Origin: Bacillota bacterium
GTDB lineage: Bacteria > Bacillota > Sulfobacillia > JAMDAP01
NCBI GenBank assembly: GCA_050260815.1
Contig: JBLNCQ010000114.1
Span: 1 to 56,044, forward strand
Direction of reading: 5' to 3'
DNA: 56,044 nt
The translations under genes were made by a program, and so were the position numbers. Below are positions 11,016 to 42,440 of this stretch, piece after piece; the first letter of the stretch is position 1; every line of letters starts with the position of its first letter. A model generated the notes under the pieces. That model worked only from the letters and a program-made list of their open reading frames with translations, had not been told where the DNA came from and did not search any database.

Positions 11016-11615
11016 TCAGGTGCCGCGGGCGGGCCGGCGCTGCCGAGCGGCGACCCCACCCTCCTCGCGCTCGTGCGGCCGCCAGGGGGTGCCGACCGCC
11101 GGCAGGAGCCAGCGGTCAAGGCCGTAGTACCCCGCCACCTTCCAGGCCAGGATGAGAAAGATCGAGATGGTGAACAACAGCGGGTTGGTGCTGGCGGAGC
11201 CGGCCATCATGAAGTTGAAGTTCATGAAGCCGCCCAGGAAAGCGGCAATGCCCGTGAACGCCCCCAGGAAGAGCAGCACGCCTACTGCCAGTTCACCAAA
11301 CACCACCAGTTTCGCAAACCAGCTGTACGAACCGGTGTCCAGCAGGTACTGGATGAAACTGCGGTACCAGTCGAAGGAGATGGGTGGCTTGGGTGAGGTC
11401 ACCACTGCTCTTGTCCAATAGGCCTTCAGCGCCTCGCCCGTCTGGGTCCAGGCCGGGTTGCCCAGTTTGTGGTAGCCGGCCACGAACCATTCATAACCCA
11501 GATACAGGCGGAGAACTAGCCACAACCAGGAGTAACGCGTCGTGTCGAAGAGGGCCTCGGCCCAGGGGGACCCCTGAACGGGAGGCCGCCCTCCTTCCCA
11601 TGGTCTGGTTGCCAT
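11016..11615 (-). CDS. DoxX/DoxD-like integral membrane protein
   Basis: Four predicted TM segments, with RLYLGYEWFVAGYHKL and FAKLVVFGELAVGVLLFLG resembling the DoxX family. Assignment is from remembered family features only. Confidence 0.65.
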   Translation of the reverse strand: MATRPWEGGRPPVQGSPWAEALFDTTRYSWLWLVLRLYLGYEWFVAGYHKLGNPAWTQTGEALKAYWTRAVVTSPKPPISFDWYRSFIQYLLDTGSYSWFAKLVVFGELAVGVLLFLGAFTGIAAFLGGFMNFNFMMAGSASTNPLLFTISIFLILAWKVAGYYGLDRWLLPAVGTPWRPHEREEGGVAARQRRPARGT

Positions 11616-11684: not shown

Positions 11685-11724
11685 AGGAGGAAACAAGGTC
11701 CATCCCTTACAGGATGGACCTTGT
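11685..11724 (-). terminator. Terminator ending the respiratory operon
   Basis: Minus strand ACAAGGUCCAUCC-UGUAAG-GGAUGGACCUUGU (13 bp) followed by UUUCCUCC. Confidence 0.7.
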
Positions 11725-11805
11725 ACAGTGGTTTCATGTACGCGCCGGCACATCGCCTGCGAAACGGGTCGGGTACAATCGGCTCGGGGACAGGGCTGCG
11801 GAAGA

Positions 11806-13251
11806 TCAAGGAGCGGGGGGCTGGGTGTGAATCGTTTGCGAGACATCGTGGCATTTGTGGCAGGCATCGGCGGTCTGGTCGTCCGGGTCCTGCTCACAGG
11901 CGGAGCCGTAGGCCAGCGGCACGGCGAACGGCTTGCCCGTCACCTTGCTGTACTGCACCAAGCGTTCTCCCTCAAACCGCAGGAACGGCAGCGTCTCGCC
12001 GGCGCCGGTGAGGCCCACCCTGTCGCCTACCCGCAGCGACGGGAAGCCGGATTGCAGCCAGCGCGGGTCCGCCAGGGCTGGGTCGCCGGCGTTGATGACC
12101 GTGCTCCGCGGCGGCGCCTGCGTTGTGCCGTGGCAGTCATAGCAGCGGACGGACTGCGCCTGATACTTGTTGCCCGCCGGCTTCCCGTCGCGGGCCGGGT
12201 CGCCCATCGTGTCATGACGGCTGTGGCAGTCGATGCAGTCCAGGGAGACCTCGCAGCGGGCGTAGCTCTCGCCGGGAATGTAGTACTCGCGCACCCGGGC
12301 GGCCCAGGCGGCCCCGTCTGTGGTGGGAGCGTGGGAACTCGTGGGCAGGTCTGTCCGCCGCTCAAAGGTCATCGAGACCAGCGAGTGGATGCCCTGGTTG
12401 TGGCAGGCGTTGCACTGCGTGTAGGGAATGCTGGCGGTCAGTCGATGGACGGCGCCGTGGCCCGCCTGGTCCTTGGAGATGGTGACGTCCTTCCCCTCGT
12501 AGGTGCCGGACCGGTTGTACAGGTAGTGGCAGGCGCTGCAGCCGCCGGAGTAAGTCCGGCCGGCGTCGCCGTGGGCGCCGCCCCACAGGTGGCACTGGGA
12601 TAGGCAGTTCTGCTGGAACGCCTCCTCCTGGGGGTGCCCGTCCAGCGGCGCGGTGATGTCGGCGGGCGATCCGTCCACGGGAAAGGCCGGCCGCTCCGCG
12701 TCCTTCTGCAGGCCAAAGGCCACGCGCACCTGGTTGATCTCGCCGGCCTTGCTGGCCATCGGGCTCTGCGCCAACCGCCCGGCCATGTTCAGTTCGGGGT
12801 GCTCCCTGCCGCTGTGGCAGGCTGCACCGTTCGGCCCTGTGCCGCAGCTCTGCTGGGCCACGCGCAGGTCGCCGGGGTTGCCGCCGCCCACAAGTCCCTC
12901 ATGGGCCTCGGTCTTGTCCAGAGAAAGGCCGTTGCCGCCGTGGCAGCCAATGCACCCCAGGACCTCCACCGGGTGGCTGGGGCTGATCTCCTCGATGCCC
13001 AGGTGGCAGGTCTGGCACCGATCTACACGTCCGTCGGGCAGGGTCAGGCTGACCACCTGCGGACTGCGGTCAATGCCCTCTCGCTGGAAGTACAGGTCCT
13101 GGTACGCCTGCCATTCCTGCCGGCGGTCCTGCCGCAGGTTCACCCACGCCACCTGGGCCAGCAGGCCCAGGCTGAGCAGTGCGAACGAGGCGGCAAGAAC
13201 GGGCCCCCGCCGACCGTGCCGGTCCGGGGCGGGGACCGGGCCCGATTTCAT
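11806..13251 (-). CDS. Membrane-anchored multiheme cytochrome c (7 CxxCH plus 2 atypical sites)
   Basis: CQTCH, CIGCH, CSACH, CNACH, CIDCH, CYDCH and CHKCH, plus CLSQCH (CX3CH) and CGTGPNGAACH (CX8CH). N-terminal TM segment LAASFALLSLGLLAQVAWV. ATG 13251 sits 6 nt after ACAGGAGGTG (the track starts at GTG 13260). Confidence 0.85.
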   Translation of the reverse strand: MKSGPVPAPDRHGRRGPVLAASFALLSLGLLAQVAWVNLRQDRRQEWQAYQDLYFQREGIDRSPQVVSLTLPDGRVDRCQTCHLGIEEISPSHPVEVLGCIGCHGGNGLSLDKTEAHEGLVGGGNPGDLRVAQQSCGTGPNGAACHSGREHPELNMAGRLAQSPMASKAGEINQVRVAFGLQKDAERPAFPVDGSPADITAPLDGHPQEEAFQQNCLSQCHLWGGAHGDAGRTYSGGCSACHYLYNRSGTYEGKDVTISKDQAGHGAVHRLTASIPYTQCNACHNQGIHSLVSMTFERRTDLPTSSHAPTTDGAAWAARVREYYIPGESYARCEVSLDCIDCHSRHDTMGDPARDGKPAGNKYQAQSVRCYDCHGTTQAPPRSTVINAGDPALADPRWLQSGFPSLRVGDRVGLTGAGETLPFLRFEGERLVQYSKVTGKPFAVPLAYGSACEQDPDDQTADACHKCHDVSQTIHTQPPAP

Positions 13252-13278
13252 CCCGGCCACCTCCTGTGGGCGGGCAGG

Positions 13279-14328
13279 TCAGACCTGCCACCAGAAGTAG
13301 AGCGTTAGGGCTGTGAAGCATGTGGCGACAGCGAGCACCAGAGTACGCCCCAGCCAGGGGCGCCTCTCCTCCAGGTAGGGCGCCGACCCCAGCAGCAGAA
13401 CCGCGGCCAGCGGAACGGCCACGCCCGCCACGAAGGGGGACAGCCGGTGGAGCAGCACCTGTACTGCGCCAAACACCCAGGGCGCCGGCACCGGCGCGAC
13501 CGACGGCTGGTCTGGCGCCAGACCGAGCCCGGGAGGCAGAAGCAGGGCCAGGAGCAGCACCAGGTTGGCGACCGCCAGGCCGGCCACCCACTCGCGCGCG
13601 GCAAGCTGCGAGAGCGGGATGTGGGTTCCGTCGTCCGCTGCCGGGCGGCTGATTCCGCCATCGCGGCGGACGTGCCACAGGTGCCAGCCCATCACGCCGA
13701 AGCCCGCCAGCGGAAAGACCGAGCTGTGCCAGGCCGATAGGCCCAGCAGGGCCCCCTGCCCGCCCGAGCCGAAGATGAGGGCGGCCAGCGCCTGGCCCAC
13801 CACCGGCACCGACCGCAGGATGCTCCACCCCACCGTGGCTGCGGAAACGGCCTCCAGGTCGCCACGCAGCAGGTAGCCGGTGTAGTCAAGGCCCACCACC
13901 AGCACCAGGAGCCCGACGCCCAGCCACCAGTTGAACCGGCGGGGCGGCAGGAAGGCCCGCGTCAGGGCCACGCGCAGCAGGTGGAACAGTACCGTCACCA
14001 CCAGCATCTGCGCCGCCCAGAAGTGGAGCGAGCGGAAGAGCCAGCCGTAGGGCAGGACGTAAGTCAGGTTGGCCAGGCTGCGGTAGGCGCCATCTCCGGG
14101 CTGGTATTGGAACAGCAGGGGAAGGCCCGTGACCAGCAGCAGGAGGAACAACAGCACCGAGGCCCCTCCCAGGCCATAGGTATAGCGGAATCGGGCGGCT
14201 GAGGCAGGCACCCAGCCGGGACGGCCGTGGGACAGGAAGCCGCGGCGCCTGGTCAGCGTTCGCACGCCTGGTCTTGCGGCGGGACCCGGTTGGGTTGGCA
14301 TGGGCGCGTGTCGCTCCGGCAGCGCCAC
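13279..14328 (-). CDS. Cytochrome b (b6-type, fused with subunit IV-like C-terminus)
   Basis: HFWAAQMLVVTVLFH (H-x13-H) and HSSVFPLAGFGVMGWH (H-x14-H, b6/Firmicute type). GTG 14328 sits 8 nt after GGAGG; alternative ATG at 14301. The longer track ORF overlaps the Rieske gene. Confidence 0.85.
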   Translation of the reverse strand: MALPERHAPMPTQPGPAARPGVRTLTRRRGFLSHGRPGWVPASAARFRYTYGLGGASVLLFLLLLVTGLPLLFQYQPGDGAYRSLANLTYVLPYGWLFRSLHFWAAQMLVVTVLFHLLRVALTRAFLPPRRFNWWLGVGLLVLVVGLDYTGYLLRGDLEAVSAATVGWSILRSVPVVGQALAALIFGSGGQGALLGLSAWHSSVFPLAGFGVMGWHLWHVRRDGGISRPAADDGTHIPLSQLAAREWVAGLAVANLVLLLALLLPPGLGLAPDQPSVAPVPAPWVFGAVQVLLHRLSPFVAGVAVPLAAVLLLGSAPYLEERRPWLGRTLVLAVATCFTALTLYFWWQV

Positions 14329-14404
14329 AGGCGTCACCTCCAGAGAGACGGTGAGCAGCGGGGCAGCCCATGTTCCGTGCGTTGCTGCAGAGCAGGGCCG
14401 GCCC

Positions 14405-14905
14405 CTACAGGGGCAGGCGGAAACTTGCGTCAACCGTCCGGCTGAGATCCAGCCAGACGTGACCCTGAGCGTCCAGACGGAGCAGGGCTCGGGCCATGGC
14501 GATCCGGGCCGGCCCCTGGACAGGCCGGCCCTCAGCATCATAGCGGCTGGCATGGCAGGGGCAGGCAAACCCGCTGCCCTCTGCCCGGACAGCGCAGCCC
14601 AGGTGGGTGCACGTGCCTGCCAGTGCCTGCAGTCCGCGTTCGTCGCGGCTGATCCAGCAGTGTGTCTCGGGCACCTGCCGCCAAGACCCGGGAGGGAGGT
14701 CCGCCGCCAGCCTGGACGCCTCCCCCAGGTCCATAGGCTTGAGTCGACCTCTCGTGTCCCCATCCGGGGGCGAGGTGGCCATCAGACGGAAGAACGGTCC
14801 CAGCAGGCCGAGGCCGGCCAGGGCCAGGGCGCCCAGGCCGCCGGCCAGGAGGACGCGCCGGGTAATCCCGTTCCCCTCCAAGCTGTCCGCTCTTCCCTCC
14901 GACAT
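14405..14905 (-). CDS. Rieske 2Fe-2S protein with a twin-arginine signal
   Basis: CTHLGC..(x15)..CPCHASRY Rieske boxes. ITRRVLLAGG is a TAT-like motif followed by a TM segment. ATG 14905 follows AAAGGATGG. Confidence 0.9.
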   Translation of the reverse strand: MSEGRADSLEGNGITRRVLLAGGLGALALAGLGLLGPFFRLMATSPPDGDTRGRLKPMDLGEASRLAADLPPGSWRQVPETHCWISRDERGLQALAGTCTHLGCAVRAEGSGFACPCHASRYDAEGRPVQGPARIAMARALLRLDAQGHVWLDLSRTVDASFRLPL

Positions 14906-14957
14906 GGTGCGTCCATCCTTTCGGGAGCCCAGGGCACCCAGGCCCGGGCACAGCGTG

Positions 14958-16001
14958 CTAGTGCGTGTACCAGGCAAAGGCCTGGCCGGCATAGACGATG
15001 ACGTAGCGGAGCAGGAACCCGCCCACCAGGACCAGCGTGCCGGTGAGCAGCCCCAGGGTCGGAACCGTCGGGACTGGGGCCGGGCGTCTGGCCGGGTGGG
15101 CGTGGTGCCTCAGTTCAGCGGCCTCCAGAACGATGGGCAGCAGTACGCCCGCCAGCATGGGCCCCAGCCAGAACAGCCAGGCGTAGGACCCGGCCAGCAT
15201 GACGTCCCAGGCCTTCCGGGCCGTCAGGGTTCCCAGGCGACTGTAAAGGATCATCAGCAGCAGGGTGGCAAGCTCCAGGCCCAAAAGGACCAGGTCGCCC
15301 CGGAGGAGCAGGTTCATCTCCGGGTCGGCGTGCGCTCCGGATGAAGCGGCGGCCGCCTCGGCCCGGGCGGTCCCGGGTACGGCGGCGACGTGCGCCCCCG
15401 CCCGGGCTTCGGTCCATCGGGCCAGGAGGACGGAGACCATCACTCCGGCCAGGCCGGTGGACATGGCGGAGAAGAGGAACAGCAGGGGCATGAGCGGCGA
15501 GCCCCAAAGCGGACGGGTGCTGGCACCTAACAGGATGGCGGTGTAGATGGCCACGCCCACGGCGAAGGGCAGGCCCACGCCTGCCAGGGTGCGCCGCGTG
15601 CGGCGGAGGCCTTCGTCAGGGCCGCCGGCCGCAGCCCGCCAGCCCTTCGGCAGAACGCGCGCCACGGCTGCGCGCCAGCCGTGGGGGAGCCAGACAAAGA
15701 AGTACAACACGCTGATGATGAGGAACGCGGTGAGGAACCAGACGCCGAAGGACATGGGCGACGTCGGCCGCAGGGTGGTGAACAGCCAGTAGAACGCAAG
15801 GGGACGGCCCAGGTCCAGGACCAACAGGCCGGTGCCCACAGCCGCGGGAAATGGCGCCAAAAAGGCGCCCCAGGCGACGGTTCGGCGGTGCCGCTCCCCG
15901 CTGCCAAGCAGCACTGCGGCGGAGGTGGCGAAGGCGCCGGCGCTCACGCCGGCCAGGAACAGGTAGAGGACGATGAGAAAGCCCCAGGACATCTCATGCA
16001 T
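14958..16001 (-). CDS. NrfD/PsrC-type polytopic membrane (quinone-interacting) subunit
   Basis: About 8-9 TM helices. N-terminus MHEMSWGFLIVLYLFLAGVSAGAF is typical of the NrfD family. ATG 16001 sits 6 nt after GAAGGAGGTG and overlaps the psrB-like stop by 8 nt. Confidence 0.85.
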   Translation of the reverse strand: MHEMSWGFLIVLYLFLAGVSAGAFATSAAVLLGSGERHRRTVAWGAFLAPFPAAVGTGLLVLDLGRPLAFYWLFTTLRPTSPMSFGVWFLTAFLIISVLYFFVWLPHGWRAAVARVLPKGWRAAAGGPDEGLRRTRRTLAGVGLPFAVGVAIYTAILLGASTRPLWGSPLMPLLFLFSAMSTGLAGVMVSVLLARWTEARAGAHVAAVPGTARAEAAAASSGAHADPEMNLLLRGDLVLLGLELATLLLMILYSRLGTLTARKAWDVMLAGSYAWLFWLGPMLAGVLLPIVLEAAELRHHAHPARRPAPVPTVPTLGLLTGTLVLVGGFLLRYVIVYAGQAFAWYTH

Positions 16002-16689
16002 GGTTCGCACCTCCTTCGATGGAGGCCAGGGCCCGGGCCGGTGAGCCGGTCTCTCGGGCGGGCGCGCCGGGCACGAGGGCGTCCGCCACCTTCATGGTGG
16101 CGGTGGCACCGGCCTTCTCGAGGAAGTCCGCCGGCACCGGCACGTCAATGTAGTAGATGTTTGGTCCGGTGCCCGCTTCAGCGGCCGCCTGGTAGTGGGG
16201 GAAAGCTGCCAGCAGTCTGGACACGGCGCTGGTCGGGTCGTTCAGGTCACCGGCAACGCGCGCCTTGCCCAGGCAGGTGGCCACGCAGGCGGGCTCCAGG
16301 CCCTTGTCCAGGCGGTGGACGCAGAGGGTGCACTTGTCCACGGCGCCTGTTTCCTCGTTCAGGTAGCGGGCACCGTAGGGGCACGCCTGGATGCAGTACT
16401 GGCAGCCGATGCACTTCTCCTGGTGGATGAGGACAATGCCGTCCTCTTCCCGCTTATAGGAGGCGCCGGTCGGGCACACGCCCACGCAGGGCGCGTTATC
16501 ACAGTGCATGCAGTTGGCCGGCTGAAAGGTCTCTTGCAGGTTGGGGAAGACACCGGTGATGCCGCTGCTCTTGATCCAGTTGCGGCTGTTCGGGATGGGG
16601 ACCTCGTTCTCGGCCCGGCAGGCCACAGTGCAGGCCTTGCAGTCGATGCACCGGGCCGTCAGCATCACAAAGCCATAGCGCTTAGCCAC
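15994..16689 (-). CDS. 4x[4Fe-4S] ferredoxin-type electron-transfer subunit (PsrB/PhsB/HybA-like)
   Basis: CIDCKACTVAC, CMHCDNAPCVGVCP, CIGCQYCIQACP, CTLCVHR..CVATC cluster motifs. Confidence 0.9.
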   Translation of the reverse strand: MAKRYGFVMLTARCIDCKACTVACRAENEVPIPNSRNWIKSSGITGVFPNLQETFQPANCMHCDNAPCVGVCPTGASYKREEDGIVLIHQEKCIGCQYCIQACPYGARYLNEETGAVDKCTLCVHRLDKGLEPACVATCLGKARVAGDLNDPTSAVSRLLAAFPHYQAAAEAGTGPNIYYIDVPVPADFLEKAGATATMKVADALVPGAPARETGSPARALASIEGGANHA

Positions 16690-16703
16690 GGGTCATCGCC
16701 TCC

Positions 16704-19094
16704 TCATGCCTTGCTGACGGTGACAAAGGTCTGGCTCAGGGCCGACGAGCCCGCAATGGGGTCGGCATAGGTCTCGTGCAGCGCCGAGTCGCTGACGCCG
16801 CTCTGGTAGGCGGTCCGCAGCGCTTTGGACAGGTGGCCGAAGCCCGGCACCATGAACACGCAGTCGGGTCGGATGCCCTCGGTGACATAGGCCCGAGTGC
16901 GGACCTTGCCCACGGAACTTTCCACCACGACCACATCGCCCGTCCCAACGCCCAGCCTGGCGGCCACGCTGGTGTGGATCCAGACCGGGTTCTCCGGGAA
17001 GAGGTCGTGCAGCCAGCGGTTGTTCTGAGTACCCATCTGCGAGTGCTGCGCCACCTTGCCGGTGAGCAGGTAGAACTTGCCCGGAGGGGGAGCCGCCGGC
17101 TCCTCCCAGATGGGCACGCCCTTGCCCGCCACCTGGGCCAGCAGCGCGGAACTGATTTCAATCTTGCCGCTGGTCGTCTGAAATGTGAGCCCCGCCGCAG
17201 CATGCTCGGCGGCGCCGGCCTCCGGGGCGACGGCCTCCGAGGCAGCGGGCCCGGCAGCGGCTTCAGCGGCGCCGGCGGTGTCTGTAGCGGGCTCAGCGGC
17301 GCCGGCGAGCTCGGCGGCAACCGTCGCCTCCGCCTCGGACGGCTTCGCCTCAGCCTCCTCCGACTTCGGCGGCGCGTCATAGTACCCCCTGGCCTTGAAC
17401 TCGTCCAGGCTGACCGCGAAGGGCTTCATCTGGGCGGCCACCAGCTCTTCCTCGTTCTTGTAGGGGAAGTACTCGCCCAGCCCCAGCCGCTCGCCCAGCT
17501 GTTTGAAGATCATCAGGGCGGAGCGGGTGTCGTAGAGGGGCTCGATCACCGGCTGGCGCAGGAAGATGCGGTTGCCGGTGGCGATGACCGGGTCGTAGCG
17601 CTCCAGGTAGCTGGACTCCGGCAGGATGACGTCGGCGTAGTAGGCGGTGTCGTTGGGGATCACGTCTATGACCGCCAGCAGCTCCAGCTTGTTCAGGGCC
17701 TCAATGGTCTTGCGCCGGTCCGGCAGCGACAGGACGGGGTTCTGGCGCGAAACCAGCCAGCCGCGCGCCTGGTAGGGCTGCCCGGAGAGCACGGCGTCGC
17801 GGATGTTCTGGTAAATGCCGTAGACCAGGGGCACCAGCGGGAACTTCCAGGGCACGCCGTCCAGGCGCATGGCCGTGACCGGTGGGTAGGCCGGCTGGGG
17901 CAGGGTGCCCAGTTCCGGCCCCCCCTCCTCCCCGGCGCTGGGGATCAGGCCGCCCGGCTGGTTCCAGTTGCCGATCAGCGCGTTGAGCACCGCCATGGCC
18001 CGCTCGGTCTGGAAGGAGTTGAGGAAGTTGGAGGTGCGCCAGCCCGGGTGTACAAAGGCGTTCGGCCGGGCGGCGGCAAACTCCTGAGCAATGCGGCGGA
18101 TGGTGCGCGCCGGGATCTCCGTGCGGACCTCCGCCCACTCGGGCGTGTAGGGGTCCACTTCCTTCGCATACTCCTCAAAGCCAACGGTGTTGGCCTGCAG
18201 GAACTTCTCGTCGTAGAGCTTCTCCCTGACGATGACGTTGGCCATGGCCAGATAGAAGGCCAGGTCCGTGCCGGGACGGATGGGCAGCCATTCGCTGGCC
18301 TTGGCGGCCGACTTGGTGAAGCGGGGGTCCAGCAGGACCACATGGGCGCCGCGGTTCACCATGTCGACAAAGTCCTGGGTCTCGTTGTTGGAAATGGACT
18401 CCGCCAGGTTGCGCCCGGAGAAGATGGCGTATTTGGCGTGGGCGTAGTCGGTTCCGGGCTGCGCCTGGCCGAAAGTGAAGAGGTTGGCGATGGTCATGGA
18501 GTTGAAGCAGAGGCTGCGCTGGGTGCCGTAGTTGGGGCTGCCGTAGGCGCGCAGCAGGTTCTCAAAGTAGGGCTGGGAGAGGTTGTGCGTGGAGCTGAAA
18601 ACCATGGCCTCCGGCCCGTACTTCTCCTTGATCCGCTTCATCTCGCCCGCCGTGTAGTCCAGAGCCTCGTCCCAGGAGGCGCGGCGGAACAGCCCGCTCC
18701 CCCGGTCGCCGACCCGCATCAGCGGAAACTTGAGCCGGTCCGGGTCATACAGGACCTGGAGGCCGGCATTGCCGCGGGGGCAGAGCTTGCCGCGGTTGGC
18801 CGGGTGGTCGGGGTTGCCTTCCAGCTTCACCACAACGCCGTCGCGAACCCTGGCGTCCACACCGCAGCGCCAGACGCACATCTCGCAGAGGGTCTTCACC
18901 ACGCGCTCGCCTTGCTCACCGGCAGAGGCGGAACCGCTGGCCCTGGCCGGGCGGGCTCCGCCCGCCAGGACGCCGGCGGCGGCCAGACCCGCCGCCGCGG
19001 CGCTGCTGTAGCCAATGAACTGCCGGCGGCTGACCAACTGGTCCCAGGTGAAGATCTGGCCGATGCCCTCCGACTGCTTGGTATCCTTGGGCAT
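16704..19094 (-). CDS. TAT-exported molybdopterin oxidoreductase catalytic subunit, polysulfide/thiosulfate reductase-like (Psr/Phs family)
   Basis: SRRQFIG twin-arginine signal. CEMCVWRCGV..KLCPRG is the FS0 4Fe-4S motif. QRSLCFNS holds the probable Mo-ligand Cys. ATG 19094 sits 7 nt after AGGGAGGT. Contains an Ala/Glu/Pro-rich insertion (17190-17372). Confidence 0.9.
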   Translation of the reverse strand: MPKDTKQSEGIGQIFTWDQLVSRRQFIGYSSAAAAGLAAAGVLAGGARPARASGSASAGEQGERVVKTLCEMCVWRCGVDARVRDGVVVKLEGNPDHPANRGKLCPRGNAGLQVLYDPDRLKFPLMRVGDRGSGLFRRASWDEALDYTAGEMKRIKEKYGPEAMVFSSTHNLSQPYFENLLRAYGSPNYGTQRSLCFNSMTIANLFTFGQAQPGTDYAHAKYAIFSGRNLAESISNNETQDFVDMVNRGAHVVLLDPRFTKSAAKASEWLPIRPGTDLAFYLAMANVIVREKLYDEKFLQANTVGFEEYAKEVDPYTPEWAEVRTEIPARTIRRIAQEFAAARPNAFVHPGWRTSNFLNSFQTERAMAVLNALIGNWNQPGGLIPSAGEEGGPELGTLPQPAYPPVTAMRLDGVPWKFPLVPLVYGIYQNIRDAVLSGQPYQARGWLVSRQNPVLSLPDRRKTIEALNKLELLAVIDVIPNDTAYYADVILPESSYLERYDPVIATGNRIFLRQPVIEPLYDTRSALMIFKQLGERLGLGEYFPYKNEEELVAAQMKPFAVSLDEFKARGYYDAPPKSEEAEAKPSEAEATVAAELAGAAEPATDTAGAAEAAAGPAASEAVAPEAGAAEHAAAGLTFQTTSGKIEISSALLAQVAGKGVPIWEEPAAPPPGKFYLLTGKVAQHSQMGTQNNRWLHDLFPENPVWIHTSVAARLGVGTGDVVVVESSVGKVRTRAYVTEGIRPDCVFMVPGFGHLSKALRTAYQSGVSDSALHETYADPIAGSSALSQTFVTVSKA

Positions 19095-19107
19095 AGGACG
19101 AACCTCC

Positions 19108-19641
19108 CTAGACGTTGTGCTTTTCAAAGAAATAGAAGAGTAGCAGGGAGACCTGCGTGAAGAGCAAGATAATCAGCCAGGGGCTGACGTTCCAAAGGCT
19201 TGCCATGGTCACCGGACCGATGTTGGCCAGCTTGTAGATGGGCATGTACACGCTGTTGTAGCTCAGGCCGAAGAGGATGCCCCCAAAGAGGAAACCGAGC
19301 ACGGCGGGAATCAGGTAATCCAGGCTGCCCTGGCCGCTCCCGGCGGCACAGGTGCCCGGTCACAGTCCGCCGATGGCCATGCCCACGCCGAAGATCAGGC
19401 CGCCGACCACGTTGCCTACCACGTAGGTCTCGTTGACCTTGCTCATCTCCAGCAGGCCCAGTTCGTTCAGGCCGAAGACGCCGACCATGCCGACGATCAG
19501 TGCGGTCATCATGAACTTCATGACCGCCATGTCCTTAAACCGGAACACGTTCACGATCTTGTGGTACTTGGAGAGTCCGGCCTTCTGCAGGGCAAGGCCA
19601 AAACCCATGCCAAAGACCAGGGCCAGGGCGTACTGTCCCAT
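19108..19641 (-). CDS. YeeE/YedE-family (sulfur/selenium transport) half-permease B with an in-frame TGA (19360-19362) at the conserved Cys position; candidate selenoprotein or pseudogene
   Basis: The track splits it into 19360..20001 (C-terminal part MGQYALALVFGMGFG..GVGMAIGGL*) and 19108..19302. Both are in the same frame, and read-through gives GGL-U-PGTCAAGSGQGSLDYLIPAVLGF... ATGA overlap with half A. Size of 177 codons matches half A (175 aa). Confidence 0.6.
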
Positions 19642-20168
19642 CAGTACTTCCTCCCGTAAAGCAGCTTGGTTGTCACCACGCCGGAGGCAAACATACCGCC
19701 GATGAAGAGGAACCCGGCCGGAGCCAGCTGCAGCGAGCCGGAGATGGCCAGGCCGCTGGTGCAGCCTCCGGCGATTCCTGCGCCGTACTCCAGGATGGCG
19801 CCGGCCAGGAACACCGAGATCCAGCGGGTCCAGCGGTTGCCGCCAAAGGTCTCCACCCACTGGGGCGGGGCCGTCTCGATGTGGAAGTCGCCGGAGGACT
19901 TGGACGAGACGAAGGCGCCCAGGACGACGCCGATGATCAGGAACAACTGCCAGTTCAGCCCTGCCGGCATGATGTACTTGAAGTACATCTGCTCCGCCCA
20001 CGGGGCGCCGGTGGCCTTCAGGATGGTGCTGTCCAGGGTCTCAAAGGTGCCGGAGCCGCCCAGAAGCTGATCGGACAGCCAGTAGGCAAGGGTGGCCACC
20101 ACGCCCAGGAAGGCGCCGGCGGCATAGGGCGACCAGCTTTTCTTCTTCATGATCTCCATCAGGCCCAT
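19641..20168 (-). CDS. YeeE/YedE-family half-permease A
   Basis: Multi-TM protein with GAGIAGGCTSGLAISG (conserved GGC motif of the Sulf_transp/YeeE family). ATG 20168 sits 7 nt after GAGGAGG. Confidence 0.85.
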   Translation of the reverse strand: MGLMEIMKKKSWSPYAAGAFLGVVATLAYWLSDQLLGGSGTFETLDSTILKATGAPWAEQMYFKYIMPAGLNWQLFLIIGVVLGAFVSSKSSGDFHIETAPPQWVETFGGNRWTRWISVFLAGAILEYGAGIAGGCTSGLAISGSLQLAPAGFLFIGGMFASGVVTTKLLYGRKY

Positions 20169-20180
20169 GCTCCCGCCTCC

Positions 20181-21071
20181 TCAGTTCTTCTGGCCGCGGG
20201 CCAGGGACAGCACCAGGAGAAGCTCCTCCCGGCTCAAGGTCTCCAGGCGACCCACCAGGCTAAGATCCAACCGTGCCAGGCGGCGGAGCATGGCCGGGCC
20301 GCCGTCCTGATGCAGCACCTGCTCGAGGGCCTCCAGCGTGGAGGCGTCGCACTGGGCTAGCAGCGTGACAAGCTCGGCGCGCTCAGCGGGCATCGCCATT
20401 CCCACAGCGTCGGCAAAGGACTGACGGGATGCGGCTGCGTCCTTGCGGGTCCGGGGCTTCTTCTCGTACATCCAGTACGTGCCGGCCAGACCCAGGGCGG
20501 CCAGAGCGTTGAGCCCCCAGAGAACCTGGTTGCCGCGGTTCGGGGGCTGGGGCTCGCCGGGCAGGCGGCGGTTGAAGTCCAGCACGTCCTGCGTCCCGGC
20601 CGGGGCGGCGGGCGCCGGGGCGGAAGCCGCCGGCGGCGGAGGCGGGGTAGCGCTACCCGAGTTCTGATTGGTGGCCGGGCTAGTGCCGCCGGCCGCAGGA
20701 GCGCCGCCGGAGGGAGCTGAGCCGCCATACTTGGCCACCCGGGCGGCCAGGTCATTGGCGTGGCAGGTGGCGCAGGACTTCTGCGCGTCCTCCAGGGCCG
20801 GGCGCATCCCCTGGTGCGCTTTCTCGGCGGTGGTCTCCTTGGTTACGCCTCCGTGGCAGAACTCGCAGAAGTCGAAAGCGGCGTGGTCGGTATGCCATGC
20901 ACCGTTCTTCGACACCGGGTCCTTCCCCTGGATCTCGTGACAGGTCTTGCAGGATGAGGTCGATGCCCCGCAGGCCGCTTCCGCCCGCGTTGAGAGCCCA
21001 TACCAGGTGATGGCTCCCGCCAGGCCCACAGCGCCCAGCAGCAGGGCTGCGATTCGGACCGTCTTGCCCAT
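20181..21071 (-). CDS. Triheme cytochrome c with Pro/Ala-rich linker, C-terminal TM helix and about 90-aa cytoplasmic helical tail
   Basis: CKTCH, CEFCH, CATCH. N-terminal signal/anchor IAALLLGAVGLAGAI. Linker ..ATPPPPPAASAPAPAAPAG... TM segment VLWGLNALAALGLAGTYWMY. RBS GGGAGGAG. Confidence 0.75.
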   Translation of the reverse strand: MGKTVRIAALLLGAVGLAGAITWYGLSTRAEAACGASTSSCKTCHEIQGKDPVSKNGAWHTDHAAFDFCEFCHGGVTKETTAEKAHQGMRPALEDAQKSCATCHANDLAARVAKYGGSAPSGGAPAAGGTSPATNQNSGSATPPPPPAASAPAPAAPAGTQDVLDFNRRLPGEPQPPNRGNQVLWGLNALAALGLAGTYWMYEKKPRTRKDAAASRQSFADAVGMAMPAERAELVTLLAQCDASTLEALEQVLHQDGGPAMLRRLARLDLSLVGRLETLSREELLLVLSLARGQKN

Positions 21072-21091
21072 GCCTTCCGCCTCTCCTCCCT

Positions 21092-21117
21092 TTTGTGAAA
21101 GCTCTACGTTTCACAAA
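21092..21117. promoter_or_regulatory. Perfect 9-8-9 inverted repeat directly upstream of the operon RBS (operator or 5'-UTR hairpin)
   Basis: TTTGTGAAA-gctctacg-TTTCACAAA. Confidence 0.4.
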
Positions 21118-21190
21118 TCTGAGCCGGACCCGGTTGCCATCTCAGGGCTCTTGGCCTCCGGACGGGCGGCAGCGGGGCCTTCCATACCTG

Positions 21191-21204
21191 TACCCCTAGG
21201 GGTA
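21191..21204. promoter_or_regulatory. CsoR/CstR-type palindromic operator candidate
   Basis: TACCCCTAGGGGTA is a perfect 14-bp palindrome, starting 16 nt downstream of the predicted -10. It resembles the copA operator at 42337-42357. Confidence 0.4.
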
Positions 21205-21219
21205 TACACTCCCCTTTTC

Positions 21220-21249
21220 ATGCTACTGATGTCACATGGGTACCGTCAA
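21220..21249 (-). promoter_or_regulatory. Candidate promoter of the respiratory operon
   Basis: Minus strand TTGACG, 18-nt spacer, TAGCAT. Confidence 0.4.
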
Positions 21250-21287: not shown

Positions 21288-21328
21288 CCAAACAAACAGG
21301 GCCCCTGCCGCTGATCGCGGCAGGGGCC
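21288..21328 (-). terminator. Terminator after the HD-domain gene
   Basis: Minus strand GGCCCCUGCCGC-loop-GCGGCAGGGGCC (12 bp) followed by CUGUUUGUUUGG. Confidence 0.7.
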
Positions 21329-22732: not shown

Positions 22733-23212
22733 TCAGGGCAGGCTGCGGACAAACTCCAGAACCTGGTCAATGTGCCCGTCCACTTTGACCTTACGGTCAA
22801 TGCGGCGCAGGATGCCGTCCCGGTCGATGACGAACGTGCTGCGTTCAATGCCCAAGCGGGTCTTGCCGTACATGGTCTTGGGCTTGAGCACGTCGTACAG
22901 GTTGCAGACCTGCCCCTCCTCATCCGAGAGCAGGAGGAACGGCAGGTTGTACTTGGCGATGAACTTGTCGTGGGACCTGCAGGAGTCCTTGCTTACGCCC
23001 AGGATAACGGCGTCCGCATGGTCGAATTGGGCCTTCTGATCACGGAAGGCCGTGGCTTCAGCCGTTCAGCCGGGGGTGTCGTCCTTGGGGTAGAAGTAGA
23101 GGACCACCTTGCGTCCGCGCAGGTCGTGCAGGGAAACGGTCTGTCCGCCGGAGGCGGGCAGCGTGAAGTCGGGCGCGGGAACGCCGACCGTAAGCTCAGC
23201 GTTGTCGCTCAT
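22733..23212 (-). CDS. bcp: BCP/PrxQ-type peroxiredoxin with TGA (23066-23068) in place of the peroxidatic Cys codon; predicted selenocysteine peroxiredoxin
   Basis: Own translation: [109 protein letters not shown]... The single frame continues through the TGA to the stop at 22733. AAAGGAGG sits 6 nt before ATG 23212. Neither half appears in the ORF track. Confidence 0.8.
23030..23051 (-). other. SECIS-like hairpin downstream of the bcp UGA
   Basis: Minus strand GGCCUUC-CGUGAUCA-GAAGGCC (7 bp, 8-nt loop containing GU), beginning 14 nt after the UGA. Confidence 0.45.
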
Positions 23213-23302
23213 GGACATCCTCCTTTAGTGGTTTACTTGTCCACAAAGTGCGGAAAATCCTGCCGCCCGCGCCGTCTGGCTCGTTCGGGCCGCCGGCCCG
23301 GG

Positions 23303-33893: not shown

Positions 33894-34158
33894 GTAGGCA
33901 CATCCCCTAAAGTATTGTCCTCTGCTACTTCTGAAAGCAGCGGGGGAATCCCTGCACGAGTCGCCTCCACGCGGGCGGCGCTAGGGCCCCCGGAATAGGC
34001 GAAAGTCTCCAGCCTGGGAACGGTGGCGCACCCGGTGGCGCGAGGCTGGCTTCGAGGCACGGATGGCGCTTCCAAGAAACCCCCGGTCGCGCCCTCGCAG
34101 GTTGAGGGCAGGCCGGGAGTCTGCTATTGGTGCATCATGGAGCGGGTGGCACCGGGGC

Positions 34159-34764
34159 TCAATCCCCCTGAGCTTCGACACATCTTCGCACGGCATTCAA
34201 GAACCGGCTTAGGCTTGGACAAACCTCGGCAGCCCTTTGTGGATTCCAGACGCCGGATGCAAATTCAATGAGCATCGCGGTGTAAACTGGGCCAACCCTT
34301 GCTTCACTGTCTCGCGCCGGAACCATCTGGCGCTGAATCTCACGCGAGGTCGATAATCGCGCAAGGTCAATCATGACTTGCTTTGCATCCGGTAGAAGCT
34401 CTGGTTCCGGCGGTACTCTGCTCCTATCAACACGCATAAACCTGGCTATTCCTTCACGGTCGCCGAGAAGCCATGCTTCTACCTGATGGACCGCAACTCG
34501 GAAGCACATACCCCCGGATGGTTCGGGCAGCCACTTGGCTACCAAGGCCGGGGCGCAGGGCGTCTCTTGGTCTAGGTCCACGAGGACAACCCAAGGGGCA
34601 AGACGAGCTGCGTGGTTGTACGCCGAAATCCTGGCCCTAAGCCGTTCCTTACCCCTCTTGATGTGGACGGGCCCCGCTTCAACCCGTAACTCCTCAAGAA
34701 CACGCCGAACAACCGCCTCATCGACGGGGCCCTCCACGGCAATGGTGACCCGAGTAGTCGTCAT
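34159..34764 (-). CDS. TOPRIM/OLD-nuclease-like small protein (DUF4435/DUF4276/RloB-like)
   Basis: IAVEGPVDEAVV (E-G-x-x-D), VVLVDLDQE (DxD), VHQVEAWLLGD. The start lies 14 nt after the ATPase stop. Confidence 0.55.
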   Translation of the reverse strand: MTTTRVTIAVEGPVDEAVVRRVLEELRVEAGPVHIKRGKERLRARISAYNHAARLAPWVVLVDLDQETPCAPALVAKWLPEPSGGMCFRVAVHQVEAWLLGDREGIARFMRVDRSRVPPEPELLPDAKQVMIDLARLSTSREIQRQMVPARDSEARVGPVYTAMLIEFASGVWNPQRAAEVCPSLSRFLNAVRRCVEAQGD

Positions 34765-34778
34765 GTCACCAGGCCTCG

Positions 34779-35906
34779 CTATTCGCCGAAGAAGGTTAGT
34801 TGCTGGACTTGGGACGGTCTGGTTCTGGGAAGAACAGCTTCGGCCATAGTAGCCCCGCCCTCGAGGAGTGCGTGTATTTGTGCATCGTCCTTGCCAAGTT
34901 GAATCTCGGTGCCTTCCTTGGACGGTACAAGAAGAAGAACCTCTTCCGGACCGATGCCGTCGTCCTCAAGCAGGCTCGGACTATGGGTGCTTAATAGCAC
35001 CTGCCTAGGCTTTTTCGTAACCAGCCGTGATATCATCTGCGGGATGTAGCGAACCACTTCCGGATGTAATGACAATTCCGGCTCCTCCAGTAGCAAGGGG
35101 CCTGAGTCGTCGAGAAGTGCCCAAAGGAGACCCATTAAACGAAGTGTCCCGTCCGAAAGCTGGCTCTCGTTCTGCCAACCTGCGTTCGGTCGCCAATGTT
35201 CATACAAGCTGAGTAGGTGAGGCGTGCCTTTCTCGTCCTTCTTCAACTGAAGGTCGCGTAACTGCGGCACTGCAACTTTAAGGGCATCTCTGATCTTGGC
35301 CAACCTGGAACTGAGGACTCTTGGCTGTGTCTTGGCCAACTGCTCCAGGAAATCGCCGCCATAAGGGTCTGCTTGCCTTCCCACTGAACGGTCGGGGTCT
35401 CGAACCAGCTGTGGGACGATATGCAAATAGCGGGCCGAGGCCAAGAACTTGACTACTTCGCGGAACGGTTTGTTGACGTTGACCTGTTCGAGCGCGGTCG
35501 CAGTCATGCGAATCGGATCCGCTTCATCCTCCGGATCTGGGCGCTTCAGTAGGAGGGACCGCCCCTTCCAGACTTCTTCACGCGTCAAAACAGGGCGGCT
35601 CTGATTATCCTGGGTGAAGGCAATCACATACCGCCAAACCGTACTGTTGGTCTCTAGAGACACATCGATACTAACGTCTGGATACCTACGTGCAGCATAG
35701 GAGCGGAGTTTGGAGACTCCACCCCTGCTGCTAACTGCGTTCTGAAAACTGCCTCCGACCTTGGCGATTTCTTGAAGAAACCTGAACACGTCAAGGAAAT
35801 TCGACTTACCGGAAGCGTTGGGACCAACAAGGAAGACTCTCGGTGTTAGTGACGCGTGGACCCGCTTGAAATTCCGCCAGTTCTCCAGCTGAATTTCCCT
35901 GTACAT
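34779..35906 (-). CDS. ABC/SMC-type AAA ATPase (AAA_15/AAA_21-like)
   Basis: LVGPNASGKSNFLD (Walker A), QLSDGTLRL (signature-like), LLLLEEPELSLHP (Walker B), LLSTHSP (H-loop). Confidence 0.8.
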   Translation of the reverse strand: MYREIQLENWRNFKRVHASLTPRVFLVGPNASGKSNFLDVFRFLQEIAKVGGSFQNAVSSRGGVSKLRSYAARRYPDVSIDVSLETNSTVWRYVIAFTQDNQSRPVLTREEVWKGRSLLLKRPDPEDEADPIRMTATALEQVNVNKPFREVVKFLASARYLHIVPQLVRDPDRSVGRQADPYGGDFLEQLAKTQPRVLSSRLAKIRDALKVAVPQLRDLQLKKDEKGTPHLLSLYEHWRPNAGWQNESQLSDGTLRLMGLLWALLDDSGPLLLEEPELSLHPEVVRYIPQMISRLVTKKPRQVLLSTHSPSLLEDDGIGPEEVLLLVPSKEGTEIQLGKDDAQIHALLEGGATMAEAVLPRTRPSQVQQLTFFGE

Positions 35907-35997
35907 CAGTCATCTCTCTTCTCCTGAGTGCCGTTTCAGGTCATTCGGACGGAATATTCAACGACCGTAGGCGTCAAACCTTCACACACACGCTTCC

Positions 35998-39750: not shown

Positions 39751-40035
39751 TTAAAGAAGCCTCTTAAGAAGTTCACTGAGTTCCGCCTCCATTTCATCAC
39801 CGTTTCCTCGTTGGATGGCGTCCGCCACGCAGCCGCGTGCATGGTCCACCAGGAGCCGCACGGCGATCTGGTCCAGGGCCGCACGCACGGCTGCAATCTG
39901 GTTCAGGATGTCGGCGCAGCGGCGCTGCTGCTCCACCATGCGCTGAATGCCGCGGATCTGGCCCTCAACCTTGGCCAGTCGCTCCAGTAGTTCGGGCGCG
40001 TCCCTTCCGCGCGCGGCTGACATCATGGCCTCCAT
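39751..40035 (-). CDS. csoR: CsoR-family copper-sensing repressor
   Basis: LAKVEGQIRGIQRMV, with the C..H-x3-C ligand pattern (RRCADI .. DHARGC). Confidence 0.85.
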   Translation of the reverse strand: MEAMMSAARGRDAPELLERLAKVEGQIRGIQRMVEQQRRCADILNQIAAVRAALDQIAVRLLVDHARGCVADAIQRGNGDEMEAELSELLKRLL

Positions 40036-42307: not shown

Positions 42308-42336
42308 GAAGAACACTCCCATCGGTTCAGTTTACC

Positions 42337-42357
42337 TACCCTACCCTGGGTAGGGTA
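42337..42357. promoter_or_regulatory. CsoR operator upstream of copA
   Basis: TACCCTACCC-T-GGGTAGGGTA, a perfect 10-1-10 inverted repeat 30 nt upstream of the copA ATG. Confidence 0.6.
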
Positions 42358-42440
42358 TCCAACGGCTTCAGTATGAGCGCCGGTTGTGAAGAAGTTATGA
42401 AGCGACGATCGAGGATGTCCGAACCGGGGGCCGGCCCGCA

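Follow-up and report, generated by a model that had tools for sequence, protein, structure and literature searches.

The window analyzed here is the whole of a 56,044-nt stretch of DNA from a Bacillota bacterium (contig JBLNCQ010000114.1). The region examined, positions 11685-21249 on the minus strand, holds nine consecutive genes that combine a molybdoenzyme of the Psr/Phs type with a Rieske/cytochrome b complex, two multiheme cytochromes c and a YeeE/YedE-type transporter split into two genes. In the direction of transcription these genes encode a triheme cytochrome c, the half-transporters YeeE-A and YeeE-B, a molybdopterin catalytic subunit, a four-cluster iron-sulfur subunit, an NrfD/PsrC membrane subunit, a Rieske protein, a cytochrome b and a membrane-anchored nonaheme cytochrome c. 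Genes were assigned using Pfam and NCBIfam profile scans plus motif searches, which confirmed the gene content, common strand and domains given in a first-pass annotation of the sequence. Every start codon is preceded by a GGAGG-type Shine-Dalgarno site, and the intergenic distances, in gene order, are 12, -1, 13, 14, -8, 52, 76 and 27 nt; the YeeE-A/YeeE-B junction, described earlier as ATGA, is in fact TGATG, with an overlap of 1 nt. The nine genes, their promoter and their terminator are all on the minus strand.

A sigma-70-like promoter (TTGACG-18-TAGCAT, 9/12 matches in the scanner) is located at 21220-21249. It is one of only two sigma-70-like matches in the 10.6 kb scanned, and its hexamers and spacing are kept upstream of the cluster in two related loci, L090 and L088, the latter from a metagenome-assembled genome (MAG) of the Symbiobacteriia. 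The operon ends with an intrinsic terminator at 11691-11724, a 14-bp stem followed by UUGUUU (-24.8 kcal/mol, z = -5.7, 0/200 shuffles as stable); this hairpin was absent from the output of a simple terminator scan. Both the promoter and the strong terminator of the first-pass annotation are thereby borne out. The gene upstream of the operon has its own terminator at 21300-21328. An Rfam scan of the whole window gave no matches, including no molybdenum cofactor or other riboswitch before the operon.

The catalytic subunit (796 aa, 16704-19094) starts with the twin-arginine signal SRRQFIGYSSAAAAGLAAAGVLAGGARPARA, contains the twin-arginine translocation (TAT) motif SRRQFI, and is predicted to be exported by that route. 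All three MopB domains, Molybdop_Fe4S4 (PF04879), Molybdopterin (PF00384) and Molydop_binding (PF01568), score above the Pfam cut-offs. The FS0 [4Fe-4S] motif (CEMCVWRCG...CPRG) was found in 38/48 orthologous segments, the other segments being cut alignments. The stretch RSLCFN aligns to SVSLCTA of Thermus PsrA, the Cys of which we take to be the Mo ligand in structure 2vpw, and GTQRSLCFN[AS]M is invariant across the 44 orthologous segments in which the motif was found. Loss of the Mo-cofactor ligands, the weak point that had been foreseen for the molybdoenzyme assignment, was checked by alignment, and the Cys ligand position, FS0 and the three domains are all retained. The NCBIfam model PhsA (NF012032) is the best family by far with 630.4 bits, yet below its cut-off of 694; the scores for ArrA (169.4, cut-off 1600), TtrA (94) and the Aio large subunit (62.7, cut-off 359) are much lower. 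The best solved relative is Thermus PsrA (2vpw, E = 7e-141, 39% identity). On the basis of these profiles and alignments the catalytic subunit is assigned to the Psr/Phs family. An Ala/Glu/Pro-rich low-complexity insert of about 60 residues (window ~17190-17380) lies between the Molybdopterin and Molydop_binding domains and is missing from the 737-757-aa orthologues of Desulfosporosinus orientis and the Symbiobacteriia MAG.

The PsrB-type iron-sulfur subunit (231 aa, 15994-16689; Fer4_11, 102.7 bits) has no signal peptide and contains 16 Cys in four groups, as expected of four [4Fe-4S] clusters; the TtrB, NrfC and DsrO profiles each give about 185-190 bits. The NrfD/PsrC subunit (347 aa, 14958-16001; Pfam NrfD, 147.2 bits) is a predicted heme-less, quinone-interacting membrane protein for which no solved relative was found by sequence.

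The Rieske [2Fe-2S] protein (166 aa, 14405-14905; Pfam Rieske) carries a TAT anchor with the motif TRRVLL and the two cluster-binding boxes CTHLGC and CPCHASRY. Both boxes are present in nearly all fetched orthologues (70 box-I matches). The Ser after CPCH[GA] is kept in all of them and the Tyr in about half. The best NCBIfam matches are the Rieske subunits of bc/b6f complexes. Rieske centres of menaquinol-oxidizing complexes lie above about +100 mV, the conserved Ser raises the potential of the centre, and electrons that have passed such a centre cannot reduce polysulfide or thiosulfate.

The cytochrome b (13279-14328; Cytochrome_B, Cytochrom_B_N_2) consists of a b6-like four-helix part fused to a C-terminal three-helix part resembling subunit IV, which is encoded by a separate gene in most relatives. 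Its start is ambiguous, the GTG at 14328 giving 349 aa and the gene call of the collection 328 aa. The heme ligands H102/H116 and H201/H216 form the H-x13-H and H-x14-H pairs noted earlier, and the protein aligns to cytochrome b6 with E = 1e-23. The best NCBIfam family is ExtP (NF040969; 184.5 bits, cut-off 290). The heme-ci Cys of cytochrome b6 (YCLGG) is replaced in the window protein (YGLGG), the PW(D/G)Q stretch of b6-type proteins is not kept, and the Qo motif is APWV instead of the canonical PEWY, with PPWL, PAWL and PPWI in relatives; non-acidic variants of this motif are known in other clades. The operon encodes no c-type subunit with one or two hemes, be it c1, f or a fused c; its only c-type partners are the nonaheme and the triheme cytochrome. 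With the cytochrome b as query, the closest proteins that are not orthologues (45% identity; Chloroflexota, Thermoflexales, L001) belonged to an ordinary cytochrome b/Rieske cluster lacking a Mo enzyme.

The atypical Qo motif, the missing PW(D/G)Q stretch and the missing heme-ci Cys would suit a quinol-based bifurcation, in which the first electron from the Qo site passes through the Rieske protein and the multihemes to a high-potential sink, while the second, energized electron is not returned at Qi but powers the uphill step in which PsrABC reduces polysulfide or thiosulfate. Such a scheme would resolve the mismatch in potential between a Psr/Phs-type subunit and a Rieske centre. It is purely conceptual, however, and the proteins speak against it: both b-heme His pairs are kept as in normal Q-cycle enzymes, no path is evident from heme bL to the iron-sulfur subunit on the outer face, and no subunit lacking a conventional role is left over for the task. 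Bifurcation is therefore regarded as very improbable, and there is equally little reason to expect its fullest form, one supercomplex of the Mo enzyme, PsrC, Rieske protein, cytochrome b and both cytochromes c that bifurcates while the triheme cytochrome and a selenocysteine-containing YeeE pair perform coupled reductive chalcogen import. If it were true, it would be a new way for low-potential sulfur respiration to pay, widespread in anaerobes. The non-canonical Qo motif and the missing heme-ci Cys themselves fail to discriminate between the competing models.

The last gene of the operon encodes a membrane-anchored nonaheme cytochrome c (481 aa, 11806-13251) that is ExtM-like, the best NCBIfam family being ExtM (NF040943; 136.2 bits, cut-off 800). 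Its nine heme motifs are seven CxxCH, one CX3CH (CLSQCH) and one CX8CH (CGTGPNGAACH), in agreement with the earlier count. Eight of the nine motifs are invariant in 49 homologues; in the CX8CH motif C136 is invariant, and at least 90% of the homologues keep C145/H146 (residues counted from the ATG at 13251). Beyond the heme motifs, the 49 homologues share two further invariant Cys, C333 and C452 from that ATG (C336 and C455 in the 484-aa numbering), which could serve as distal heme ligands, as in sulfur-converting cytochromes, or form a disulfide. One of the extra invariant Cys stands six residues before a CxxCH (CEVSLDCIDCH). An AlphaFold2 model built with 49 sequences reached a predicted local distance difference test (pLDDT) score of 64, and usable matches came neither from Foldseek against the PDB nor from profile comparison with PDB sequences.

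The first gene encodes the triheme cytochrome c (296 aa, 20181-21071; CKTCH, CEFCH, CATCH), for which no Pfam family scored above its cut-off. The protein comprises an N-terminal anchor with a lipobox-like AAC, the hemes, a Pro/Ala-rich linker, a second transmembrane helix and a helical C-terminal domain of about 80 aa. All 31 homologues compared keep the three heme motifs and AACGAS unchanged. Lying directly after the N-terminal hydrophobic segment, AACGAS resembles a lipoprotein cleavage/lipidation site. In the AlphaFold2 model (pLDDT 59) only the two transmembrane helices and the C-terminal helical domain are confident, and the predicted structure gave no fold match. The C-terminal domain is predicted to be cytoplasmic, so modelled the protein could be a sensor or docking subunit. 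The triheme gene is the first gene of the set in every mapped locus that has the set.

YeeE-A (175 aa, 19641-20168) and YeeE-B (177 aa, 19108-19641) are matched by Sulf_transp (PF04143) with 70.9 and 45.0 bits, respectively (cut-off 27). YeeE-A matches positions 187-321 of the TsuA profile, the C-terminal half of the fused YeeE/TsuA protein, and carries GGCTSG. YeeE-B is the equivalent of the N-terminal half of the fused protein and has homologues 50-70% identical over its full length. Both halves are far from the equivalog cut-offs (TsuA, 39 vs 645 bits; YedE/FdhT, 24 vs 350).

YeeE-B forms one reading frame only if an in-frame TGA at 19360-19362 (codon 94, GGL-U-PGT), beyond which the frame continues, is read as selenocysteine (Sec). 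A TGA occurs at the same aligned codon in 32 fetched related loci (31 counted, and L043 by eye) and in L088 and L090, and the identical aligned position is TGT or TGC (Cys) in about 17 other loci (7 counted, 10 by eye). The coding frame downstream of the TGA is conserved. A stem-loop resembling a selenocysteine insertion sequence lies just after the UGA (19315-19363), with an apical hairpin GCCGC-CGGGA-GCGGC about 13 nt downstream. A hairpin is found 13-15 nt after the UGA in all lineages; the stems differ (GAUCAC/GUGGUC, GUCGCC/GGCGGC, GCCGC/GCGGC) while the distance is kept, and single-sequence folds are weak (z = -1.4, -1.75). Judged by this comparative evidence, YeeE-B is a selenoprotein. 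Public gene calls split it, as DEACI_1079/DEACI_1080 in Acididesulfobacillus acetoxydans and as 93 aa + 83 aa in the D. orientis data.

A second candidate for Sec was found elsewhere in the window. A Bcp/AhpC-type peroxiredoxin frame (~22750-23240, minus strand), situated between an HD-domain gene and a lactate/malate dehydrogenase gene, has a TGA at the position of the peroxidatic Cys, and L090 contains the same TGA-for-Cys peroxiredoxin, annotated as two fragments. The protein is probably a Sec-peroxiredoxin and as such indicates that the organism uses selenocysteine. A tRNA scan of the window found no tRNA-Sec and no other tRNA gene.

Just downstream of the -10 hexamer lies a perfect palindrome, TACCCCTAGGGGTA (21191-21204), present as a single copy in the window and conserved as TACCCATAGGGGTA in L090 and TACCCTAGTGGGTA in L088. 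Its TACCC...GGGTA style is presumably that of a CsoR-family operator, and this family includes persulfide sensors. A similar, longer box, TACCCTACCCAGGGTAGGGTA, is found at ~42345-42365 before copA (40040-42322, minus strand); the two differ in spacing. A csoR-like gene (39754-40020) follows copA in a copA-csoR-copZ-like operon 20 kb from the respiratory operon. CsoR-family genes are close to the cluster in L007 and in A. acetoxydans (DEACI_1090). The palindrome is thus a candidate CsoR/CstR-family operator, and the putative regulator of the operon would be of the CsoR/CstR type, either the copper sensor encoded beside copA or a persulfide-sensing paralogue.

Transcript data are available for the orthologues in A. 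acetoxydans, DEACI_1077-1087 (L015), which were matched to the window genes by annotation and gene order only. These genes were weakly expressed whether sulfate or nitrate was respired, and their levels did not differ significantly between the two (PMC10949509, supplementary File S3); under sulfate the first seven genes were at about 3-19 transcripts per million (TPM) and the Rieske-to-multiheme genes at 24-58 TPM, a roughly threefold difference (PMC10949509). The cluster is not mentioned in the discussion of these data. In A. acetoxydans the Rieske gene is flanked by wider gaps than in the window, and the two levels hint at an internal promoter in that species. The single transcription unit of the first-pass annotation is accordingly plausible in the window, but its A. 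acetoxydans counterpart shows two basal expression levels.

Unequal transcript levels are what would be expected if the two halves were merely adjacent, that is, if an ordinary PsrABC enzyme and a YeeE importer lay beside a general-purpose Rieske/cytochrome b complex whose own multiheme cytochrome served other pathways. The largest gaps in the window (52 and 76 nt) also flank the Rieske gene, variants with one half only exist (L031, L064, L083, L040), and related cytochrome b genes in other Chloroflexota are found in ordinary bc-type clusters without a Mo enzyme (L001). Against this, a scan of the window region found no terminator or promoter-like site between the Mo-enzyme half and the Rieske/cytochrome b half, and the neighbourhood is kept in several phyla through changes of order and orientation, as described below. 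The Rieske/cytochrome b module moreover recurs beside three different sulfur-compound molybdoenzymes and beside MccSep of Geobacter. Mere adjacency is considered improbable.

Conservation was examined using the nonaheme cytochrome alignment as bait against one genome per species, which yielded 360 relatives; the best 80 loci were mapped with ten window proteins. The triheme, YeeE-A, YeeE-B, Mo, iron-sulfur, Rieske, cytochrome b and nonaheme genes occur together in 38 of these 80 species-level loci, 32 of which have a recognizable PsrC. Six further loci hold part of the set, and several of the remaining ones are short or cut contigs. The full set is found in Desulfosporosinus (16 loci), Desulfitobacterium, A. 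acetoxydans, Peptococcaceae CEB3, other Bacillota MAGs and Chloroflexota, and in one MAG each of Calditrichaceae, Nitrospirota and Neomarinimicrobiota. Outside the Chloroflexota the gene order is the same as in the window or nearly so, although the Calditrichaceae and Neomarinimicrobiota loci place the Rieske gene after the nonaheme gene, as do the Chloroflexota. In the latter (Anaerolineae, Caldilineaceae, Aggregatilineales) cytochrome b comes first, then the multiheme gene and then Rieske; the halves are sometimes divergent but still adjacent. Adjacency that survives rearranged order and orientation is not due to chance and marks the set as a functional unit. The co-occurrence of the Mo enzyme, Rieske/cytochrome b and multiheme genes, for which a neighbourhood search had been suggested, thus recurs in several phyla, and the view of the genes as one conserved functional unit is upheld. 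Close relatives (66-86% protein identity) are in metagenomes and in the Symbiobacteriia MAG GCA_054642335.1, whose gene order matches that of the window from the upstream HD-domain gene to a DoxX gene downstream. Judging from these relatives, the window probably belongs to a Symbiobacteriia-like bacterium of high G+C within the Bacillota.

Desulfosporosinus and Desulfitobacterium also contain paralogous clusters in which the same module of Rieske protein, cytochrome b, subunit-IV-like protein and nonaheme cytochrome accompanies a different enzyme. The type 2 cluster of Desulfitobacterium sp. Sab5 (L038, 3071-11254) encodes a rhodanese, a PhsA equivalog, a TorD-like chaperone, PsrB and PsrC, and its enzyme passes the PhsA model (787.8 bits vs 694). 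The type 3 cluster of Desulfosporosinus sp. FKB (L030, 2150-16361) encodes TtrB-, TtrC- and TtrA-like proteins, a TorD-like chaperone, a YedE-like protein of 482 aa and a binding-protein/histidine-kinase/response-regulator set; the TtrA-like subunit scores 571 bits with the TtrA model, below the cut-off. Paralogous clusters are likewise present in L035, L037, L039, L041, L042, L045 and L051 and in L032, L033, L061 and L063.

Other variants lack a component. In a Chloroflexia MAG (L079, 1832-14720) genes for an ArsR-type regulator, a multiheme cytochrome, a Rieske protein and an FmdE-like protein are divergent from the triheme/YeeE/PsrABC genes, in the surroundings of a four-rhodanese protein, MobA and a VKOR-domain protein. 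A similar arrangement occurs in L070, L075, L076, L078 and L085. The Rieske gene is present and no cytochrome b was found in the loci L079, L070, L078 and L085; L075 has neither a Rieske nor a cytochrome b match, and in L076 a cytochrome b match lies about 9 kb away. In a Thermoanaerobacteraceae MAG (L040, 6682-11332) the triheme, YeeE-A, YeeE-B(Sec), Rieske, cytochrome b and nonaheme genes have no Mo enzyme between them, an indication that the cytochrome/channel/bc part can exist on its own. At least 10 Desulfosporosinus loci carry CoA-disulfide-reductase/rhodanese genes a few kb or less from the set. The common denominator of the contexts of the module is sulfur or selenium chemistry.

Electrons could flow in either of the two directions offered in the first-pass annotation, of which the oxidative one is treated first. 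In an oxidative linear chain the Psr-type enzyme would run in reverse, oxidizing sulfide, polysulfide or another reduced sulfur compound and reducing menaquinone via PsrC; the Rieske/cytochrome b complex would re-oxidize menaquinol in a Q cycle, the nonaheme and triheme cytochromes would deliver electrons to Fe(III), Mn(IV) or another reductase, and the YeeE pair would import sulfane sulfur for cytoplasmic processing. A sequence from a low-potential sulfur donor to menaquinone, the Rieske centre and the c hemes is thermodynamically coherent on general grounds and explains why a quinone-reducing and a quinol-oxidizing module are encoded together. YeeE-like import of sulfane sulfur for oxidation has been proposed in sulfur oxidizers and cable bacteria, the anchored multihemes of the outer face occur in organisms for which metal reduction is reported (Desulfitobacterium hafniense genome paper), and reversed Psr and reversed bc complexes are proposed elsewhere. 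Elsewhere, however, the module accompanies a Ttr-like enzyme together with a two-component system of the tetrathionate type, and reversal of Ttr to reduce menaquinone is not sensible; its partner in Geobacter is an experimentally established polysulfide reductase. Most hosts respire sulfur compounds reductively, and in the loci examined the set comes with neither a terminal reductase nor an outer conduit. An oxidative chain is accordingly deemed unlikely.

The reductive direction appears better supported by analogy, because the other partners of the module are reductases (Ttr-like, PhsA-type, MccSep) and because Rieske/cytochrome b complexes elsewhere feed periplasmic reductases that have a non-electrogenic quinol dehydrogenase. 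The favored reading, to which about an even chance is given, is that of an outward-facing respiratory reductase system for an inorganic sulfur or selenium compound, fed via PsrC and via an energy-conserving Rieske branch, with the YeeE pair importing the product. The TAT-exported PsrAB would be seated on PsrC at the outer membrane face and would reduce the substrate, which may be tetrathionate or another polythionate, polysulfide, thiosulfate or selenite. A second, proton-motive route would lead from menaquinol through the Rieske/cytochrome b complex to the membrane-anchored nonaheme cytochrome, which, probably with the triheme cytochrome, would supply electrons either to the reductase itself or to a second reaction in that pathway. 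The YeeE-A/B channel, with Sec at a central conserved Cys position, would import the product (thiosulfate or sulfane sulfur), and a CsoR/CstR-type repressor at the promoter site would control expression.

The cofactor-binding motifs and domains of every subunit are intact, as this reductive reading needs. A sulfur or selenium substrate, which had been proposed from the YeeE/YedE pair, is the class to which the Psr/Phs subunit, the Sec-containing YeeE pair, the rhodanese and CoA-disulfide-reductase neighbours in relatives and the CsoR/CstR-style operator best point. Because of the potential of the Rieske centre, the Rieske branch is reasonable only if the chalcogen acceptor has a high potential, like tetrathionate or selenite, while the PsrC route could serve substrates of lower potential. 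One coherent, speculative version would be the reduction of tetrathionate or a polythionate outside the cell followed by import of thiosulfate via the TsuA-like channel. What the sequences show directly is the gene content, the cofactor-binding motifs, the co-conservation of the set in several phyla, the homology of the Rieske/cytochrome b/multiheme half to ExtM/ExtO/ExtP/ExtQ of Geobacter and the Sec/Cys pair; that the parts associate physically, which way electrons run, what is respired and which regulator acts are inferred.

Several points weigh against the proposed reductase system. That substrate, direction and complex formation are reached by inference is one of them. The classical substrates of the closest Psr/Phs enzymes are too low in potential for electrons from a Rieske centre, and a PsrABC enzyme needs no second quinol oxidase. 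The variants without a nearby cytochrome b (L079) or without a Mo enzyme (L040) indicate that the parts are separable, and, given the two basal transcript levels in A. acetoxydans (PMC10949509), the halves may not be strictly co-transcribed. The structures of both cytochromes are poorly predicted (pLDDT 64 and 59), with no fold match.

Downstream of the operon terminator lies the gene for a DoxX-family membrane protein (11016-11615, minus strand; Pfam DoxX, 32.7 bits) with its own promoter, TTGCCT-16-TATAAT. Among the loci compared a DoxX gene follows the cluster only in the Symbiobacteriia MAG L088. The DoxX-like gene had been taken as a pointer to the nature of the system; being a separate unit that is not conserved beyond the closest lineage, it is a lineage-specific neighbour outside the conserved module and was rejected as a component. 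Elsewhere in the window the G+C content falls to 0.57 at 34001-36000, compared with 0.63-0.71 in the remainder, and no high-GC3 reading frame was found at ~33900-36000.

Literature searches, which included the locus tags Desor_357x and DEACI_108x and covered reviews of bc-complex evolution incompletely, found no paper that describes the cluster or assigns a function to it, in line with the earlier statement that no characterized equivalent is known. Taken singly, the modules all belong to known types, and a named Geobacter homologue exists for the Rieske/cytochrome b/multiheme half. What is new, as far as the searches reach, is their combination, in which a Psr/Phs enzyme and PsrC are joined by a Rieske/cytochrome b complex, a nonaheme cytochrome of the ExtM kind, a triheme cytochrome that spans the membrane and a YeeE transporter that is split and contains Sec. 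It bears on energy conservation by menaquinone-dependent anaerobes that respire sulfur compounds and on the role of the many Rieske/cytochrome b complexes with multiheme partners in anaerobes, one of which it ties to a defined class of terminal enzyme. It also draws attention to a pore position of a YeeE-type channel at which Sec and Cys widely replace each other, in a gene that current annotations split in two. The cluster is present in cultured species, D. orientis DSM 765, Desulfitobacterium spp. and A. acetoxydans, and is therefore directly testable.

Among known systems, alternative complex III (ACIII; ActABCDEF) and Qrc resemble the window set in combining a MopB-like protein, a four-cluster protein, an NrfD-type protein and a multiheme cytochrome c that interact with quinone. 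The MopB-like part of ACIII and Qrc has lost its cofactor. The window enzyme, in contrast, keeps the Cys ligand, FS0 and the three domains, is encoded with one NrfD gene where ACIII has two, and is accompanied by Rieske and cytochrome b genes. ACIII, whose ActA is a pentaheme protein, has no Rieske/cytochrome b pair and takes the place of a bc complex. Membership in ACIII or Qrc was rejected, the cofactor ligands being retained and the QrcB model giving 185 bits against a cut-off of 440. Aio likewise pairs a MopB enzyme with a Rieske protein; the Rieske gene of the window is followed by one for cytochrome b. The scores for arsenite_ox_L (62.7/359), arsenite_ox_S (28.9/95.65) and ArrA (169.4/1600) led to rejection of Aio, Arx and Arr.

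The YeeE pair shares the Sulf_transp fold with YeeE/TsuA and SoxT-type importers, and members of the YeeE family are importers of thiosulfate or sulfane sulfur. The window transporter differs in being split into two genes whose order is swapped relative to the fused protein, and its cluster has no YeeD/TusA partner gene, unlike the YeeE/TsuA comparison systems. A Sec-containing YeeE/YedE family is already listed in selenoproteome reviews, where it is described with a GUxSG motif. In the window that motif keeps its Cys (GGCTSG, in YeeE-A), and Sec stands in G-x-U-P-G-T of YeeE-B, the half that represents the N-terminal repeat, that is, at the other conserved Cys. The conserved Cys positions of YeeE reportedly line the pore.

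The PsrABC and PhsABC enzymes (Thermus, 2vpw; Salmonella, NF012032) share with the window the TAT-exported MopB subunit, FS0, the Cys ligand, the four-cluster subunit, the NrfD anchor and the gene order A-B-C. The Rieske/cytochrome b complex, the pair of multiheme cytochromes and the split YeeE that always accompany the enzyme here are missing from the classical psr and phs operons, and the window enzyme differs from PsrA and PhsA by its 39% identity to Thermus PsrA, its score below the PhsA cut-off and the additional ~60-aa insert. In Caldithrix abyssi the Nap/epsilon-Hao cluster encodes a Rieske/cytochrome b complex together with a periplasmic reductase, and Qcr-dependent respiration is reported for nitrate and trimethylamine N-oxide (TMAO) in Campylobacter and for N2O in Wolinella. 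The Nap-type systems are like the window set in joining a Rieske/cytochrome b complex, through multiheme carriers, to a reductase that has its own non-electrogenic quinol dehydrogenase (NapGH vs PsrC). They act, however, on nitrogen oxides or TMAO via Nap, Tor or Nos and contain no Psr/Phs enzyme, ExtM-like nonaheme cytochrome or YeeE.

The claim that the architecture matches none of the known systems proved too strong, since the Rieske/cytochrome b/multiheme half is homologous to ExtM/ExtO/ExtP/ExtQ of Geobacter. The extHIJKLMNOPQS cluster of Geobacter sulfurreducens encodes ExtM with 12 hemes, ExtN with 10 hemes, the Rieske protein ExtO, the cytochrome b ExtP, the small membrane protein ExtQ, and ExtS. 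Like the window set, it combines a Rieske protein and a b6-type cytochrome b with a large multiheme cytochrome c that replaces the monoheme c1 or f, and, like the window-type loci, it lies beside a reductase for sulfur/selenium compounds and rhodanese-type proteins. It differs in the number of hemes of ExtM (12 vs nine), in having an outer-membrane porin, and in having, as described, no PsrABC, no YeeE pair and no triheme transmembrane cytochrome. This is presumably the cluster also known as Cbc6 / CbcMNOPQR. ExtKL, encoded directly upstream of the ExtM module, was shown to be MccSep; this pentaheme polysulfide reductase contains selenocysteine, sulfur respiration cannot proceed without it, and the authors also propose a mechanism by which it reduces selenite (2025 preprint). 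The Geobacter reductase is thus a Sec-containing pentaheme enzyme, whereas that of the window is a molybdoenzyme. With scores below the equivalog cut-offs (184.5/290 for ExtP, 136.2/800 for ExtM), the window cytochrome b and nonaheme cytochrome are, by profile comparison, homologous but not equivalent to ExtP and ExtM. The comparison provides a working hypothesis for ExtMNOPQ of Geobacter, as a quinol oxidase that may be dedicated to the reduction of chalcogen compounds.

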